From NCBI GenBank assembly GCA_944363885.1, contig CALVVO010000002.1:9632-73631 (forward strand): 64,000 nt of DNA, read 5' to 3'. The notes under the pieces are model-generated. The model ran no database searches. It saw only the letters and a list, made by a program, of their open reading frames with translations, and was not told where the DNA came from. Every line of letters starts with the position of its first letter. Position 1 is the first letter of the stretch. The translations under genes were made by a program, and so were the position numbers. This document shows, piece by piece, positions 28,026 to 41,877 of the stretch. This DNA comes from an uncultured Bacilli bacterium (GTDB lineage: Bacteria > Bacillota_I > Bacilli_A > RF39 > UBA660).

Positions 28026-29771
28026 TTAAATATTTCTAGTTTTATCTTTAATTGCAGCTAAAACTAACTTAGTAAATTCATCAAAAGCAATATTTTCAGT
28101 TTCATTTACCCCATATTTACGAACATTAACAAAATTACTTTCTTTTTCATTGTCGCCTAGAACTAAAGTAATTGGAATTTTTTTTGTTTGACTTTCTCTC
28201 ATTTTATATCCAAGTTTTTCATCCCTATCATCTACTTCAGCTCTTAAACCCAAATCTAACAATTTATTTTTTATAGATAAAGCATAATCTAAATGATAAG
28301 TATTATTAACAGGAATAATATTTATTTGTACAGGGCTTAGCCATAAAGGAAATGCACCAGCATAATGTTCAATTAAAATTCCAATAAATCTTTCAATAGA
28401 TCCATAAATAACCCTATGAAGCATAATTGGTTCGCGCTTTTCACCATGTTCATCTATATAGAATAATTCAAATCTTTTCGGCAATTGCATATCCAATTGA
28501 ATTGTTCCACATTGCCATGGTCTGCCTAAAGAATCATACACTTTAAAATCCAATTTAGGGCCATAAAAAGCTCCATCACCAGGATTTAATTTATATTCTT
28601 TTCCGGCATTCAAAACAGCATTTTTTAAAGCTTCTTCAGCCTTATCCCAAACACTAATTTCCCCAATAAACTTATCAAGTGGTCTAGTACTAAGTTCAAT
28701 AGAATAACTAAGACCAAAAACAGCATACATTCTATCAATAAACTTAATTAAATTAATTACTTCGCTTTCAATATCTTCTTCTCTCATAAATATATGGGCA
28801 TCATCTTGAGTAAAAGTTCTAACCCTAAATAGTCCACTTAATGCCCCACTCGCTTCATGTCTATGTACAAGCCCTAACTCACCTATTCTAAGTGGTAAAT
28901 CTCTATAAGAATGCAAACTATTTTTATAAACTAACATTCCACCAGGGCAATTCATAGGTTTAATAGCAAATTCCCTACCATCAATTTCACTAGTATACAT
29001 ATTATCTTTATAATTTGCCCAGTGTCCACTTAACTCCCATAGTTCCTTACTTAACATAGTCGGAGTTTTAATAAATTTATAATTTTCTTTCGTATGTTCC
29101 TCATACCAAAAATTTTCAAGAATATTTCTAATTATCATGCCATTTGGCAACCAAAAAGGAAAACCAGGACCAAAATCACTAATCATAAATAAATCAAGTT
29201 CTTTTCCTAATTTTCTATGATCGCGTTTTTTAGCTTCTTCTAAGAAATTCATATATTCATTTAATTTTTCCTCTGTATCAAAACATATACCATAAATTCT
29301 TTGAAGCATCTTATTATTTGCATCATTTTTCCAATAAGCGCCACTTACTTTAAGAAGCTTAAAATATTTAATTTCTTTAACAGATTCAACATGAGGCCCA
29401 CGACATAAATCAGTAAAATCACCTTGAGTATACATACTAATAATAGTATTATTTTCATCCATTCTACTTATTAAATCAATTTTATACGGATCATCTTTAA
29501 ATTTTTTTAAAGCTTCACTTTTTGAAATTTCTTCCCTATATATCCTTTTTCCATCTTTAGAAATCTTCTTCATTTCCTTTTCAATTTTATCTAAATCTTC
29601 TTCTTTTACTACATTATCACCCAAATCAATATCATAGTAAAAGCCATCTTCAATAACTGGGCCAACCCAAAACTTAGCATTAGGATATAAATGCTTAACA
29701 GCCTGAGCCAACAAATGTGCACAACTATGATTCAAAATACTTAACTTTTCATCTTCTTTAATATTAATCAT
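28026..29771 (-). CDS. thrS: threonyl-tRNA synthetase
   Basis: Class II aaRS motifs and a zinc site (HSCAHLL, CRGPH, FRVRTFTQDDAHIF). Start at MINIKE follows a GGAGGG RBS; the longer ORF in the track runs into the leader terminator. Confidence 0.9.
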   Translation of the reverse strand: MINIKEDEKLSILNHSCAHLLAQAVKHLYPNAKFWVGPVIEDGFYYDIDLGDNVVKEEDLDKIEKEMKKISKDGKRIYREEISKSEALKKFKDDPYKIDLISRMDENNTIISMYTQGDFTDLCRGPHVESVKEIKYFKLLKVSGAYWKNDANNKMLQRIYGICFDTEEKLNEYMNFLEEAKKRDHRKLGKELDLFMISDFGPGFPFWLPNGMIIRNILENFWYEEHTKENYKFIKTPTMLSKELWELSGHWANYKDNMYTSEIDGREFAIKPMNCPGGMLVYKNSLHSYRDLPLRIGELGLVHRHEASGALSGLFRVRTFTQDDAHIFMREEDIESEVINLIKFIDRMYAVFGLSYSIELSTRPLDKFIGEISVWDKAEEALKNAVLNAGKEYKLNPGDGAFYGPKLDFKVYDSLGRPWQCGTIQLDMQLPKRFELFYIDEHGEKREPIMLHRVIYGSIERFIGILIEHYAGAFPLWLSPVQINIIPVNNTYHLDYALSIKNKLLDLGLRAEVDDRDEKLGYKMRESQTKKIPITLVLGDNEKESNFVNVRKYGVNETENIAFDEFTKLVLAAIKDKTRNI

Positions 29772-30035
29772 AACACCCTCCAAAATAAAAAGGACAGTAC
29801 AAGGAGTGCAAAGCACGGTACCATCCTTAATTTAACTTAATTATTATAACGGAAATATTCCGGAACTTCTTTCGAAGTCAGTTCATAGGTAGTAATTAAA
29901 AATTTATCTTACTTGTCTCTCACCATCACAAGTTCGCTACATAGAATCAACAATTAACCATGTCCTAATCAAAACATTTATGCATAAATAATACCACAAA
30001 AGAACAATTATGTCTATACAAAAACCATTTAAATA
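29772..30035 (-). promoter_or_regulatory. T-box riboswitch leader of thrS
   Basis: On the minus strand AAATTAAGGATGGTACCGTG matches the T-box consensus AATTAGGGTGGTACCGCG at 15 of 18 positions. It is followed by a 9-bp terminator stem (GGATGGTAC / GTACTGTCC) and TTTTTATTTT. Upstream stem I contains GAGAGA and a candidate ACU specifier. Confidence 0.6.
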
Positions 30036-33659: not shown

Positions 33660-33974
33660 AATACCCGCCTTTCTAAAATAATTATACATAAAGTTTATAT
33701 CAAATAAAAGTGTTTTCACATAAACAAAAAAATAAAAAAATAAGTGTAAATGTATACACCTAATATAGCTATAAAATAGAATTATTATATTGTAAATTAA
33801 CACAACTCAATAATAATATAATTAATATGTCACTTTTATCTAAAATATGTTACAATATCTATGGAGGTTTAGATTTTTGATGATTTTATCAATAATCTAA
33901 ACTTTTTGCCTATTCGAATATAAATTGTCAAATATATCACCTCCAAGAAATACATTTACATTTTCGAAAAAAAA

Positions 33975-34003
33975 GCAATACTCTCGTCAGAGAGTATTTT
34001 TAA
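33975..34003 (-). terminator. rho-independent terminator at the end of the tRNA operon
   Basis: Hairpin aatactctc / gagagtatt, followed on the minus strand by a T8 run. Confidence 0.45.
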
Positions 34004-34261
34004 ATTTTCCAAACTGCTAAATTATCAGCATCACTTTGTGTTTTAGCAACTTTAACCCAAAAAGCAAATTTAAAACAAATCAGAATTCATGATTTTAGGC
34101 ATTCATGTGCTAGTTTATTAATAAACAGTGGTGTAAGTATCGCACTCGTTGCAAAATATTTAGGACACAGCAATATTTCAACAACATTAAACACATACAC
34201 ACATATGTTCAAAACTGAAATGGAAGAGATAACTAAAATTATAGAAAATCTGAAAAAATAG
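34004..34261 (+). pseudogene. tyrosine recombinase (phage integrase) C-terminal fragment
   Basis: Open frame with no start codon ending ...IRIHDFRHSCASLLINSGVSIALVAKYLGHSNISTTLNTYTHMF. This carries the HxxR box and the catalytic-Tyr region of integrases. It ends 83 bp from the 3' end of tRNA-Phe. Confidence 0.7.
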
Positions 34262-34344
34262 TGCCTAATTAGTACCTAAAGGCATTTTGCAAATAAAAAA
34301 AGCCCTAAAAAATGGACTTTACAAACGTCATGGTGGTTTCAGTT

Positions 34345-34420
34345 GGAATCGAACCAACGACACCAAGATTTTCAGTCTTGTGCTCTACCGACTGAGCTAT
34401 GAAACCAAATGGCGGTTCCG
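34345..34420 (-). tRNA. tRNA-Phe(GAA)
   Basis: 76-nt cloverleaf, anticodon GAA, encoded CCA. Confidence 0.9.
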
Positions 34421-34423
34421 ACG

Positions 34424-34499
34424 GGAATTGAACCCGCGATCCCTCGCGTGACAGGCGAGTGTGATAACCGCTACACCACGGAACCATTGGTTGCGGGAG
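34424..34499 (-). tRNA. tRNA-Asp(GTC)
   Basis: 76-nt cloverleaf, anticodon GTC, encoded CCA. Confidence 0.9.
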
Positions 34500-34501
34500 C
34501 T

Positions 34502-34578
<77 letters not shown>

Positions 34579-34590
34579 GCGGAGGAAAAG

Positions 34591-34683
34591 GGATTCGAAC
34601 CCCTGCGCCGGTTTCCCGACCTCCCGGTTTTCAAGACCGGTCCCTTCAACCAGACTTGGGTATTCCTCCATAAAGTTGGTGCC
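34591..34683 (-). tRNA. tRNA-Ser(TGA)
   Basis: 93 nt with a long variable arm. Anticodon TGA. Confidence 0.9.
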
Positions 34684-34690
34684 TCGGGCC

Positions 34691-34779
34691 GGAGTCGAAC
34701 CGGCACGAGCTTTAATACTCGAGGGATTTTAAGTCCCTTGCGTCTACCTATTCCGCCACCGAGGCATCAATAATATAAA
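34691..34779 (-). tRNA. tRNA-Leu(TAA)
   Basis: 89 nt with a long variable arm. Anticodon TAA. Confidence 0.9.
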
Positions 34780-34798
34780 TAAAATGGTGACCCGCTGG

Positions 34799-34874
34799 AG
34801 ATTCGAACTCCAGACCCTTTGATTAAAAGTCAAATGCTCTACCGACTGAGCTAGCGGGTCATAACTAAAAAGTG
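34799..34874 (-). tRNA. tRNA-Lys(TTT)
   Basis: 76-nt cloverleaf, anticodon TTT. Confidence 0.9.
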
Positions 34875-34886
34875 GTTGCCTCGGTT

Positions 34887-34961
34887 AGATTCGAACTAAC
34901 GAATGCAAGAGTCAAAGTCTTGTGCCTTACCACTTGGCTACGAGGCAATAATCTAAGTGGT
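34887..34961 (-). tRNA. tRNA-Gln(TTG)
   Basis: 75 nt with a U1:A72 pair and a 3-bp D-stem typical of tRNA-Gln. Anticodon TTG. Confidence 0.85.
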
Positions 34962-34971
34962 GGGGAGACAT

Positions 34972-35055
34972 GGATTCGAACCATGGAACTCGAAAGAACA
35001 GATTTACAGTCTGCCGCGTTTGACCACTTCGCTATCTCCCCATAAAAATGGTGCC
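34972..35055 (-). tRNA. tRNA-Tyr(GTA)
   Basis: 84 nt with a long variable arm. Anticodon GTA. Confidence 0.9.
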
Positions 35056-35102
35056 GAAAACAGGAATCGAACCCGTAACCTACTGATTCATACTACTATA
35101 GT

Positions 35103-35711
35103 TTTCACTACCACCAAAGTGTTTGTAGTCTGGACTTTCTCTTTACCATATTATAAATAATTTAGGTACACCGTATAAAGTCTCTACACTCGATTTTCAT
35201 CTAGCTCGGGATTGCCATATAAACTATATCTTTTTCTATCCTTACGACCATTTCCTCTATTTGCACCTTTATAAGTGCAAGTCAAAGAATGACAATTAGG
35301 ACATAAAAGAATAAGGTTTTCCTCTGAATTGTTTAAATAATTTCCATCGATATGTTCAATTTCCAATGGAATTTTACCACTGAACTTATTAATTTCTCCC
35401 CATCCACAAATAGCACATTTATTATTATATTTTTCAAATAAGTATCTGTGAATGTATAATGAAATTTGATATCTTCCTCGAAGACCATTTTTTAAACCAT
35501 TCTTCCATTCAGAAATATAGTTTTTGTATTCATACTCTTTTTGACACAAATTACTACAAAATTTTAAATTTTTAGTAAATTTACCACAAAAAGCACAATA
35601 CATAAACTCCCCTTTCAAATTTAATTAGGTTTCCCCGAATTAGCGGTGTCCACCTTGAATGTTTCCAAACAAGGGTGCAAGATAGTTCAAAAGTACCAAG
35701 TACCCTATCCC
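35103..35711 (-). mobile_element. group I-like intron (IC3-like) with HNH homing-endonuclease ORF in tRNA-Thr anticodon loop
   Basis: The upstream exon ends in U and the intron ends in G (omega-G). Near the 5' end, ...GGTGGACACCGCTAATTCGGGGAAACCTAA... resembles the P3-P4-P5 region of tRNA-type IC3 introns. Near the 3' end there is a CAGACTA P7-like element and a GAAA-tetraloop hairpin. The ORF occupies the region where P6 would lie. Confidence 0.55.
35184..35603 (-). CDS. HNH homing endonuclease (intron-encoded)
   Basis: N-terminal Cys4 (CAFCGK...CSNLC) and an HNH core (CAICGW...EIEHIDGN...LLCPNCH). AAAGGGGAG RBS before MYCAF; the track ORF starts 15 nt earlier. Confidence 0.75.
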   Translation of the reverse strand: MYCAFCGKFTKNLKFCSNLCQKEYEYKNYISEWKNGLKNGLRGRYQISLYIHRYLFEKYNNKCAICGWGEINKFSGKIPLEIEHIDGNYLNNSEENLILLCPNCHSLTCTYKGANRGNGRKDRKRYSLYGNPELDENRV

Positions 35712-35754
35712 ACAAGTCAGTTGCTCTACCAATTGAGCTATTTCGGCAAATAAA

Positions 35755-35831
35755 TGGTGGGCGATGAGAGACTCGAACTCCCGACCCTCTGCTTGTAAGG
35801 CAGATGCTCTAACCAACTGAGCTAATCGCCC
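35755..35831 (-). tRNA. tRNA-Val(TAC)
   Basis: 77-nt cloverleaf, anticodon TAC. First gene of the operon. Confidence 0.9.
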
Positions 35832-35851: not shown

Positions 35852-35880
35852 AATATAACATTTTAGTATTTTGATGTCAA
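35852..35880 (-). promoter_or_regulatory. sigma-A-type promoter of the tRNA operon
   Basis: On the minus strand: TTGACA, 17 nt, TATATT, about 20 nt upstream of the tRNA-Val 5' end. Confidence 0.5.
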
Positions 35881-35902: not shown

Positions 35903-36256
35903 TTATTTTTCATCTAATTCTTTCATTTTTTCCTCAGTCCAAATAGGAAGATTTTCTTCAAGTAATTTAAAACCCTGGCCATTTTCAGGAATTTTCGACA
36001 AAGTTTGCTCCACATTATAATCAATTTGTTTTATAGACAATTTCACCTGACTCTTACTTTCATCAATTTCCATAACTTTAACATTTATAATATCTCCTAT
36101 TTTGAACTTACTACTTAAATCTCTTATAAACTTATTGGAAACTTCAGAAATATGAACCATGCCCGTATAATCATCCATTAGACTAACAAAAACTCCATAA
36201 ACTGTAATTCCAGTTATTTGGCCTTTAACAATATCTCCTACTTTAATATTACTCAT
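35903..36256 (-). CDS. S1-domain RNA-binding protein (YugI/general-stress-protein-13-like)
   Basis: 117 aa. The N-terminal 70 aa form an S1 fold (VGDIVKGQITGITVYGVFVSL...GMVHISEV). Confidence 0.7.
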   Translation of the reverse strand: MSNIKVGDIVKGQITGITVYGVFVSLMDDYTGMVHISEVSNKFIRDLSSKFKIGDIINVKVMEIDESKSQVKLSIKQIDYNVEQTLSKIPENGQGFKLLEENLPIWTEEKMKELDEK

Positions 36257-40943: not shown

Positions 40944-41144
40944 ATGGAAAAAATAGTTATTAATAAAGAAGCATGTGTAGGATGTGGTATGTGTGTTCAC
41001 CAAAATCCAGATTACATAGTATTTGATGAAAACGGACACGCTGAACCAGTTGGAAAAGAAATCAATCCTGATGACAAAAAAAGCATACTAGAAAGTATTG
41101 AATGTTGTCCAACTGAAGCTATATGTATTGAAGAAGAAAAATAA
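40944..41144 (+). CDS. small 4Fe-4S ferredoxin
   Basis: 66 aa. CVGCGMC...CCP...C single-cluster ferredoxin pattern. AGGAGG RBS. Confidence 0.75.
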   Translation: MEKIVINKEACVGCGMCVHQNPDYIVFDENGHAEPVGKEINPDDKKSILESIECCPTEAICIEEEK

Positions 41145-41166
41145 AGCAAAAACCTGCTTTATTTTT

Positions 41167-41877
41167 TTATTTCAAACTATATAACTGTTTAACTTCTTTT
41201 AAAGATAACTTTCTATATTCACCGCTTTTTAATCCAGATAAATCCAAAAAAGCATACTTTTCCCTTTTTAACTTTAAAACATCATATCCTAAAAACGAAA
41301 ACATATCTTTAACCTGATGATTTCTACCCTCAGAAATAACAACTTTAACATAACTATAATCACTTTTTTTATCATATTTTTTTAATTTAAACAAAGCGGG
41401 TTTAGTTTTTTTCCCATTTAACAAAATACCCCTACTTAACAAAGTTGCATCATTTTTTTTAAAAAAGCCTTTTACTTTTGCAATATACTCTTTAGTTATA
41501 TTATTATTTGGATGTGTTAACAAATTTGATAGTTCACCATCATTTGTTAAAAGTATAATACCTGTAGTATCGTAATCCAATCTACCGACAGGATAAATTC
41601 TAGTTTCAGTGTTTATTAAATCAACAACAGTTTTCCTACCCTTTTCATCTTTAACAGAACTTATAACTTCTCTAGGCTTATAAAGCAAATAATATTCTTT
41701 TAAACTTTTACTAATCACTTCACCATTAACACTTACAACATCACTATCACTAACTTTTACACCAAGAGTTTTTACAACCTCACCATTAACCTTTACTTTA
41801 CCACTAACGATAAGTTCTTCACTTTTTCTTCTAGAAGCAACACCACATTCACTCAAAAACTTTTGCAATCTTTCCAT
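41167..41877 (-). CDS. rluB: pseudouridine synthase, RsuA/RluB family (S4 + catalytic domain)
   Basis: 236 aa. N-terminal S4 domain (MERLQKFLSECGVASRRKSEELIVSGKVKVNG) and the catalytic-Asp motif RLDYDTTG. Confidence 0.85.
   Translation of the reverse strand: MERLQKFLSECGVASRRKSEELIVSGKVKVNGEVVKTLGVKVSDSDVVSVNGEVISKSLKEYYLLYKPREVISSVKDEKGRKTVVDLINTETRIYPVGRLDYDTTGIILLTNDGELSNLLTHPNNNITKEYIAKVKGFFKKNDATLLSRGILLNGKKTKPALFKLKKYDKKSDYSYVKVVISEGRNHQVKDMFSFLGYDVLKLKREKYAFLDLSGLKSGEYRKLSLKEVKQLYSLK

Follow-up and report, generated by a model that had tools for sequence, protein, structure and literature searches.

We analysed a 64,000-nt stretch of contig CALVVO010000002.1 (assembly GCA_944363885.1) from an uncultured Bacilli bacterium, hereafter the window, and conclude that its minus-strand gene for tRNA-Thr(UGU) is probably interrupted, between tRNA positions 36 and 37, by a 623-nt group I intron of IC3 type that carries an HNH homing-endonuclease gene in the loop of its P5a helix. 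We put the probability of this reading at roughly 0.88. Computation establishes the split of the gene, the membership of the insert in an intron family, its secondary structure and selection on its open reading frame (ORF). A first-pass annotation, made from the letters of the same DNA, had proposed an IC3-like group I intron with an HNH gene at this very site, and homology, covariation, family covariance models and conservation of the ORF all bear the proposal out. Because standard annotation overlooks the interrupted gene, tRNA-Thr(UGU) seems to be missing from the genome, and the ORF receives no label beyond 'HNH endonuclease' or 'hypothetical'; once the intron is recognised, the tRNA set is complete. 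The locus fits the established biology of group I introns and homing, and the element is common, not exceptional.

A split tRNA-Thr(UGU) gene

ARAGORN at default settings and Rfam at its gathering threshold both report 12 tRNAs in the window and both skip the interrupted gene, which leaves a minus-strand gap of 713 nt between tRNA-Val (35755-35831) and tRNA-Tyr (34958-35041). When run with its intron search (-i), ARAGORN reports there tRNA-Thr c[35049,35747], anticodon tgt, i(37,623). Exon 1 (tRNA nt 1-36; 36 nt, 35712-35747) reads GCCGAAATAGCTCAATTGGTAGAGCAACTGACTTGT from 35747 to 35712 on the minus strand, its last base being anticodon U36, and exon 2 (nt 37-76; 40 nt including the encoded CCA, 35049-35088) reads AATCAGT...TTTCGGCACCA from 35088 to 35049. 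The 623-nt IC3-like intron that lies between tRNA positions 36 and 37 (35089-35711) begins with GGGATAG and ends with GTAGTATG, its final base being the omega-G at 35089. Both exons are intact, and the spliced 76-mer folds into a perfect cloverleaf that ARAGORN types as tRNA-Thr(UGU). The first-pass annotation had correctly described exons of 36 and 40 nt that join into a 76-nt tRNA-Thr(UGU), the break at 36/37, the U at position -1 and the terminal G; its figures for the length of the insert (609 nt, actually 623 nt), the 3' end (35063, actually 35049) and the splice junction (35712/35102, where 35712/35088 is expected) needed correction.

The position of the splice junction is fixed by a natural intron-less gene. 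Contigs that encode the exact S1-domain protein found upstream of the tRNA array (35903-36256, minus strand) were looked up and ten places were returned, eight of which have the same intron; in one contig, L292 (ENA ERZ28636346, TEEM22-1 scaffold_1704, 142-1000; aligned to window 36260-35049), the tRNA-Thr(UGU) gene is uninterrupted. Its tRNA-Thr gene is identical to the predicted spliced product at 75 of 76 positions, with exon 1 the same and exon 2 identical at 39 of 40, and the T-loop base is G56 in the window copy and A56 in the L292-type copy. This match also rules out the two-base-shift ambiguity seen in ARAGORN calls of other phyla, which is reported in PMC13011429. The shifted reading, a tRNA-Gln(UUG) interrupted at 34/35, was rejected: the intron would end in A, and the loop of the intron-less allele is CUUGUAA.

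L292 and the window are 100% identical over 549 nt (S1 gene, tRNA-Val and Thr exon 1), and the identity ends exactly at the 5' splice site; beyond it L292 has the intron-less tRNA-Thr(UGU), further tRNAs that are ~85% identical, a tRNA-Arg and then rimP and nusA. The rimP and nusA genes of L292 are absent from the window, and no other fetched locus matches the L292 tail. Two origins are conceivable for L292: the assembly may have joined it chimerically through a paralogous operon, or it may be genuine, as a recombinant or an empty-site allele. We find it most economical to suppose that an intron-less tRNA-Thr(UGU), borne by a paralogous operon or by a close relative, entered the contig through chimeric assembly or recombination. 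We caution against the interpretation that the host necessarily depends on splicing, which is unproven because L292 hints at a second, intron-less copy of tRNA-Thr(UGU) in the same genome or in a close relative. ARAGORN, in default and intron searches alike, found no second tRNA-Thr within the 64-kb window, in agreement with the first-pass annotation, but the claim made there that splicing would be required was overstated in view of L292.

Seventeen independently assembled conspecific contigs contain the intron, with 0-8 single-nucleotide polymorphisms (SNPs) each and none in the core helices. The five non-coding SNPs in the intron all fall in loops or variable positions, and those within the ORF comprise nine synonymous changes and one conservative R to K replacement. 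Intron and ORF are present in every conspecific contig that covers the site intact and are apparently fixed in the species.

Family models and secondary structure

Two covariance models were built from 62 ORF-less relatives, themselves predicted introns, with the window and the conspecific contigs left out: R1 for the 3' half of the intron and R2 for the 5' half. R1 matches 35085-35219 (138.7 bits, E 1e-28) and R2 matches 35627-35719 (48.9 bits, E 3e-14); each is the sole match of its model in the 64 kb, and the two are collinear and bracket the ORF, with a 407-nt gap between them. A bridging covariance model from RF00028-passing introns only was dropped, their P7-P9 regions being too heterogeneous. 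By its family matches and its architecture, the insert is supported as an IC3-type group I intron. Chance resemblance or an assembly artefact, such as a chimeric join of tRNA halves around unrelated DNA, would account for a weak Rfam score (given below) and for nothing else; it is ruled out by the identical arrangement in the 17 conspecific contigs and in dozens of diverged loci, together with the R1 and R2 matches, and we give it practically no weight.

A P1-P9 model was written on the ORF-deleted sequence and counted over 63 aligned sequences from the Thr and Tyr clades, which are related to one another. In P1 (35676-35714), exon UGU and GGGAUAG (35705-35714) pair with CUAUCUU and the guide GCA (35676-35685); exon UGU lies on the guide at 35676-35678, which puts U36 into a U.G wobble at the 5' splice site. 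All 63 aligned relatives share this wobble, pairing in helix 1 amounts to 84.9%, and P1 also appears in the minimum-free-energy (MFE) fold. A small P1 extension hairpin (35693-35704) is followed by the P2 hairpin (35653-35674; GAAA tetraloop at 35662-35665), in which 6 of 9 pairs covary. The stretch 35630-35649 holds the 5' strand of P3 (ACACCG, 35644-35649), J3/4 (CUAA), the 5' strand of P4 (UUCGGGG, 35633-35639) and J4/5 (AAA); P3 is 96.6% paired with 4 of 6 pairs covarying, and P4 is 99.1% paired and nearly invariant. The 5' strand of P5, with a CCUAA receptor-like motif, and the 5' strand of P5a (UAAAUU), which by the ORF-less alignment would close the ORF loop, occupy 35618-35629.

On the other side of the ORF, within the R1 match, come P5a' (AGUUUA), P5' (UAUGG), J5/4 (CAA), P4' (UCCCGAG) and the P6 hairpin (CUAGAU-GAAA-AUCGAG), together spanning 35189-35225; GGCAAUCCCGAGC is invariant in 36 aligned sequences, and P6 covaries. 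There follow J6/7 with the 5' strand of P7 (GUAGAGACUUU, 35177-35188), P3' (CGGUGU, 35168-35173), P8 with a CCUAA...AUGG receptor motif (35145-35167; 100% paired, 2 of 3 pairs covarying), J8/7 and the 3' strand of P7 (AAAGUCC, 35132-35138). The 3' end (35089-35129) consists of P9.0 (ACUAC/GUAGU) around P9a (CAC-UUUG-GUG) and P9b (GUAGU-GAAA-ACUAU), then AUG ending in the omega-G, which is invariant in the 63-sequence alignment; helices 9-11 are 96.8-100% paired, covary and are recovered by the MFE fold. All core helices are present and collinear, in the order P3-P4-P5-P5'-P4'-P6-P7-P3'-P8-P7', with the P3/P7 pseudoknot. Of the landmarks picked out in the first-pass annotation, the P3-P4-P5-like string and the GAAA hairpin are both there, and the CAGACTA taken for P7 turns out to bridge two elements, beginning in the last part of the P7 3' strand (AGUCC) and running into P9.0 (ACUAC); the P7 5' strand is found in GUGUAGAGACUUU at 35177-35188.

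Compensatory changes on both sides were found at 27 of the 60 pairs, and the covariation score was 0.308, compared with 0.133 in shuffles (0 of 500 reached the observed value); the covarying helices are P2, P3, P5, P6, P8, P9.0, P9a and P9b. The single-sequence MFE fold independently recovers P1, P2, P3, P4, P5/P5a and the P9 three-way junction.

Several points weigh against an active intron with a homing endonuclease. Standard pairs fill 91.5% of cells in the alignment and 33-42% when partners are slid by 1-3 columns, but the structure was partly derived from the window sequence, so that the paired percentage is inflated in comparison with the slid controls. Neither P4 nor P7 varies in the 63 sequences, and covariation speaks neither for nor against them; the P2 stem of the window copy contains two U.U mismatches; and the single-sequence fold is no more stable than those of shuffles (z = -1.17). 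Rfam RF00028 (Intron_gpI) scores the locus at 13.8 bits (E 0.89), over part of the 3' half only and below the curated threshold of 50 bits; the model gives 27.0 bits (E 6e-5) for an ORF-less ortholog, L135, and nothing at E 0.01 for three closer ORF-less relatives. Splicing is a prediction, for the window locus and for every member of the clade, as are the activity and the target site of the HNH protein, which could by now serve as a maturase or be a passenger.

The weak RF00028 score is nevertheless not a refutation, because the model misses the ORF-less orthologs, a crAss-like phage DnaB intron with an annotated GIY-YIG endonuclease ORF (L013) and bacterial tRNA introns. Williams 2020 (10.1101/2020.01.27.920355) notes that the RF00028 seed holds no bacterial sequence, and bacterial tRNA introns are described as missed by RF00028 and as needing other models (10.1101/2020.01.27.920355; PMC13011429). 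The first-pass annotation had held that the lack of an RF00028 match would refute an intron; the cmsearch run returned the 13.8 bits, and the test itself is invalid for a model that misses close relatives too.

An alternative interpretation is that the tRNA-Thr gene is a dead pseudogene, holding a mobile HNH cassette or a decayed intron that does not splice, and that an intron-less tRNA-Thr(UGU) elsewhere does the decoding. The sub-threshold RF00028 score and the tandem U.U mismatches in P2 would fit this interpretation, as would L292, an intron-less tRNA-Thr(UGU) with an identical exon 1 from the same population and possibly in a paralogous operon near rimP-nusA. We consider it very improbable because the exons are intact and form a perfect cloverleaf, the core helices and family-invariant nucleotides are all retained, the family covariance models return 138.7 and 48.9 bits, conspecific contigs show no disruptive SNPs, and the ORF sits in a peripheral loop closed by P5a; moreover, ORF-bearing copies that have diverged to a synonymous distance (dS) of ~1-2 still have core, exons and ORF intact.

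The HNH endonuclease ORF

The ORF of the proposed intron encodes 139 amino acids on the minus strand, from an ATG at 35603 to a TAG stop at 35184 (35184-35603), and a putative ribosome-binding site, AAAGGGGAG (35607-35615), lies 3 nt upstream of the ATG. It is located in the P5a terminal loop, runs through P5'-P4'-P6 and stops in J6/7, with its last 14 codons (...SLYGNPELDENRV*) in P5a', P5', J5/4, P4', P6 and J6/7 and its stop codon within GUGUAGAGACU. The peptide SLYGNPEL is fixed by constraints on the RNA, since its codons lie in core helices and the same bases are invariant in ORF-less introns. The first-pass annotation was right about the strand and the HNH assignment of this ORF; its location in the P6 loop and its length of 140 amino acids are revised here to the P5a loop and 139.

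The assignment rests on Pfam PF01844 (HNH; E 4e-5, 24.1 bits against a cut-off of 21.4) and on a PHROG 'HNH endonuclease' match (E 2e-17), with a domain-level match to the HNH region of IscB. Residues H84, N92, N96 and H105 and the CxxC cysteines C63, C66, C101 and C104 are invariant in 33 homologs. The AlphaFold model has a predicted local distance difference test (pLDDT) score of 80 and a predicted template-modelling (pTM) score of 0.70, and its best PDB matches in Foldseek are the HNH domains of McrA, Cas9 and Cap5, all at E above 0.001; a PDB sequence search for the protein found no real relative. In the model, the C-terminal 30 residues (109-139; 35184-35277), which include the 14-residue tail encoded by the ribozyme core, have pLDDT below 55; the tail perhaps has no structure and arises only because the reading frame continues through the RNA core.

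The HNH family comprises 2,117 homolog clusters at E <= 1e-5. Three homologs were drawn at random, with identities of 71%, 69% and 61%; each occupies the 36/37 site of a tRNA-Thr(UGU), and their genomic neighbourhoods are unrelated. All nine diverged copies examined, these three included, are at tRNA-Thr(UGU) 36/37, all are intact, and their pairwise ratios of nonsynonymous to synonymous divergence (dN/dS) are 0.09-0.49: the ORF is under purifying selection.

The intron might splice while the HNH protein acts as a maturase, has another cellular role or is a fixed passenger; homing endonucleases can decay or become maturases once fixed (PMC3984707), and the apparent fixation of intron and ORF in the species implies that targets for homing within it would be rare. 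This account is unlikely, in our judgement, because the catalytic His and Asn residues and the zinc ligands are invariant in the 33 homologs, purifying selection on the ORF is strong, and the same ORF, intron and site recur in unrelated contexts and in a tRNA-rich, possibly phage, contig, a pattern that fits continuing site-specific mobility. The ORF is also found in only ~8% of Thr introns among the matches listed, as expected for a cycle of gain and loss.

Predicted splicing and homing

Under our preferred reading, an intron that splices and a protein that homes, the ten-tRNA array would be transcribed from a promoter upstream of tRNA-Val, and the intron would fold as P1-P9, with exon UGU on guide GCA setting U36 in the U.G wobble. 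An external guanosine would attack after U36; the omega-G (35089) would then enter the G-site of P7, and the freed 3'-OH of exon 1 would attack after the omega-G, sealing the anticodon loop CUUGUAA and yielding a normal tRNA-Thr. The ORF would be translated through its own ribosome-binding site, from the precursor or from the excised intron. A ribosome and a folded ribozyme cannot share one RNA, because the last 14 codons run through P5a'-P5'-P4'-P6, and if the overlap of ORF and ribozyme core operates in this way, translation and splicing would compete on each transcript. The HNH protein is expected to cut an intron-less tRNA-Thr(UGU) near the insertion site, GCAACTGACTTGT|AATCAGTAGGTT, and repair from an intron-bearing copy would then spread the intron (homing). 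If the intron indeed splices, hosts whose sole tRNA-Thr(UGU) gene is interrupted would rely on splicing by the ribozyme to decode ACA and ACG codons.

A broader and rather doubtful proposition is that the Thr(UGU) 36/37 intron with its HNH gene is an active element, moving back and forth between the tRNA arrays of phages and the chromosomal tRNA operons of gut Firmicutes. It is raised here because a free-standing homolog adjoins a tRNA-Thr in phage iF6 and an intron-bearing copy occurs in the tRNA-rich, possibly phage, contig.

Enterococcus phage iF6 (MT909815.1, ~41097-41645; locus L301 1253-1801) encodes, in an unannotated ORF of 182 aa, a homolog of the intron HNH protein; the ORF is free-standing within the phage tRNA array, and its 3' end overlaps an annotated tRNA-Thr on the opposite strand. 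Its product could be a free-standing homing endonuclease directed against tRNA-Thr. The tRNA-rich contig of 110 kb, possibly phage, is represented by L299 (2023-3061) and L300; one of its tRNA-Thr(UGU) genes has an HNH-bearing intron, and a second, very different and intron-less tRNA-Thr(UGU) lies 300 nt upstream.

Relatives and distribution

A search with the 17-mer AATTCGGGGAAACCTAA (P4-J4/5-P5) returned 23 viral contigs, all with the rest of the core, ATGGCAATCCCGAGCCAAGC...GTGTAGAGAC. RF00028 was scanned against 13 loci, including 10 of the 23 viral ones, and 7 of these 10 contain an intron above the gathering threshold (53.5-92.7 bits). The two-block pattern GGCAATCCCGAG...GTGTAGAGAC (P4'-P7 core) matched at least 120 loci in a one-genome-per-species collection; among the matches listed, ARAGORN placed ~100 in tRNA anticodon loops, and the host tRNAs, from many phyla, were mostly Leu-UAA but also Met, Phe, Arg, Ser, Asn, Tyr, Gln, Gly and Thr. 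The ORF-deleted window intron aligns end to end with 35 of these relatives, with 36 invariant columns, and over its whole length with more than 60 ORF-less relatives; its identity to RF00028-passing introns is 52-65% over ~210 nt and to 20 tRNA-Leu(UAA) 34/35 introns, end to end, 53-68%.

The clade pattern GTAGAGACTTTATAC...AGAGAAAGTCCAGAC matched at least 120 loci in metagenomes, and where record names state the source of a contig it is the human gut. ARAGORN places introns of tRNA-Thr(UGU) at 36/37 in at least 53 gut-metagenome loci, at least 49 ORF-less and at least 4 ORF-sized (~8% with an ORF, among the matches listed), in addition to at least 2 introns in tRNA-Thr(CGU) at 36/37 and at least 43 ORF-less introns in tRNA-Tyr(GUA) at 35/36. 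Two metagenome-assembled genomes (MAGs) labelled 'Bacilli bacterium' have the Thr intron, one of 659 nt with a homologous 140-aa ORF (L113) and one of 231 nt without an ORF (L135). The rarity implied by the first-pass annotation is therefore overstated, the same intron being abundant in gut metagenomes. In complete genomes few tRNA introns are reported to bear an endonuclease gene (12 of 333), but in uncultured gut Firmicutes such introns are common, and the clade offers a compact natural ribozyme of ~230 nt together with a predicted site-specific HNH nuclease aimed at a tRNA gene.

The Tyr(GUA) 35/36 sister clade has, among the matches listed, at most three additional ORF-sized calls, whose positions are less certain. 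Loci of the Tyr and Thr(CGU) sister clades lie in the L157-L276 set, and L108 169-477 and L192 38-281 are examples; L184 contains two copies of the core motif ~680 nt apart.

Phage contigs from IMG/VR (L014-L035) have group I introns within their own tRNA genes, among them a tRNA-Arg(UCU) intron at L030 7345-7633 (81.6 bits) and an intron at L015 5172-5490 (92.2 bits) in a tRNA called Gln that reads as CAU. A 2014 review described all known phage introns as lying in protein-coding genes. The 204-kb viral contig of L030 also encodes a GOLLD RNA near tRNA genes (RF02032, 165.5 bits, E 2e-44; L030 1207-1645). At L038 7134-7429 (Sphingomonas cremea), ARAGORN calls a tRNA-Thr(UGU) with an intron at position 35 that would end in U; read as a tRNA-Lys(UUU) with a 35/36 intron, the locus has both the U at -1 and the omega-G, and it illustrates the ambiguity of intron boundaries described in the literature.

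Comparison with known introns

The classical IC3 tRNA introns are those of cyanobacterial and proteobacterial tRNA-Leu(UAA) at 34/35, Azoarcus tRNA-Ile(CAU) at 36/37, Agrobacterium tRNA-Arg at 36/37 and cyanobacterial tRNA-fMet. The window intron has in common with them an anticodon-loop site, the U at -1 in a U.G wobble, a terminal omega-G, a compact P1-P9 core of ~230 nt, GAAA tetraloops on P2 and P9, and CCUAA...UAUGG receptor-like motifs in P5 and P8. The GAAA loops of P2 and P9b and the receptor motifs of P5 and P8 match the Azoarcus IC3 ribozyme, and they may form docking pairs of the Azoarcus style. UUCGGGGAAACCUAA, GGCAAUCCCGAGC, GUGUAGAGACU and AAAGUCCAGAC of the window intron align with tRNA-Leu(UAA) introns, and, judged by homology and architecture, it has the IC3 traits of a short P2 with a tetraloop, no P5abc extension, no P7.1/7.2 and a P9 with a tetraloop. 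The tRNA-Leu(UAA) class is IC3 in GISSD (Williams 2020, 10.1101/2020.01.27.920355). The window intron differs from the classical examples in its host gene, tRNA-Thr(UGU), and in its host, a low-GC gut Firmicute with related MAGs labelled 'Bacilli'; its P3 is a continuous 6-bp helix, whereas that of tRNA-Leu introns is bulged; it has an HNH ORF, whereas most tRNA introns have none; and its clade, unlike classical IC3 introns, is barely detected by RF00028.

Among 333 tRNA group I introns in 4,934 complete genomes, 12 with an endonuclease gene are described in PMC13011429, and the accessible text lists no tRNA-Thr among these 12. The nucleases are HNH in Patescibacteria tRNA-Asn(GUU) at 35/36 and in Bacteroidota tRNA-Leu(UAA), PD-(D/E)XK in tRNA-fMet and LAGLIDADG in tRNA-Arg(CCU). 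Common to these introns and to that of the window are a length above 500 nt, a site in the anticodon loop and an endonuclease family specific to tRNA and site, and Pfam PF01844 is common to the window ORF and the Asn and Leu cases; the window intron differs from them in tRNA and site (Thr-UGU, 36/37) and in phylum. Williams 2020 (tFind; 10.1101/2020.01.27.920355) catalogues 5,292 tRNA group I introns in 21 tRNA/site classes, by a scheme which, like ours, combines a split tRNA, an intron covariance model and the U-1/omega-G rule, and in which the name would be 'Thr.5Ug'. In the texts that were accessible, our literature search found no paper on an HNH-bearing intron at 36/37 of tRNA-Thr(UGU) from Firmicutes, and the class may already be catalogued.

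Endonuclease ORFs that overlap the ribozyme core are documented in phage group I introns (PMC3984707). The window ORF resembles these in starting in a peripheral loop and extending into core helices, where bases serve as codons and as structure; the overlap here covers P5a', P5', J5/4, P4', P6 and J6/7 and includes the invariant peptide SLYGNPEL.

The tRNA array and its surroundings

The array consists of ten tRNAs in the order Val-Thr-Tyr-Gln-Lys-Leu-Ser-Met-Asp-Phe (ARAGORN), as the first-pass annotation had described. Its first gene, tRNA-Val(UAC) (35755-35831, minus strand; Rfam tRNA 74.1 bits), is 7 nt upstream of tRNA-Thr, and tRNA-Tyr, Gln, Lys, Leu, Ser, Met, Asp and Phe follow on the same strand at 34331-35041 (ARAGORN, Rfam). 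Scans for consensus elements found a promoter-like site ~20 nt upstream of tRNA-Val (35852-35880, minus strand; TTGACA, 17-nt spacer, TG-TATATT), with 11 of 12 consensus matches and an extended -10 TG, and a terminator-like hairpin with a T-run directly after tRNA-Phe (34299-34320, minus strand); both are assigned a putative function from their consensus. The GC content of the window is 24-34%, and its genes include those for a YutH-like spore-coat protein and an RsgI-like anti-sigma factor, which makes the host a low-GC spore-forming Firmicute.

A threonyl-tRNA synthetase gene (28026-29816, minus strand) lies ~5 kb from the interrupted tRNA-Thr; no T-box leader was found upstream of it, the Rfam gathering scan of the whole window having reported tRNAs only. 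The DNA just downstream of tRNA-Phe (window ~33800-34330) varies among conspecific contigs (L001 4590-6420, L005 4343-4570 and L287 4758-5066), in which an IS21 transposase pair, a phage-integrase fragment or an rve transposase replaces the RsgI-like gene of the window; such variation suggests a hot spot of integration where the tRNA array ends. In L285 the S1 gene is succeeded not by the array but by an HTH_38 transposase-like gene.

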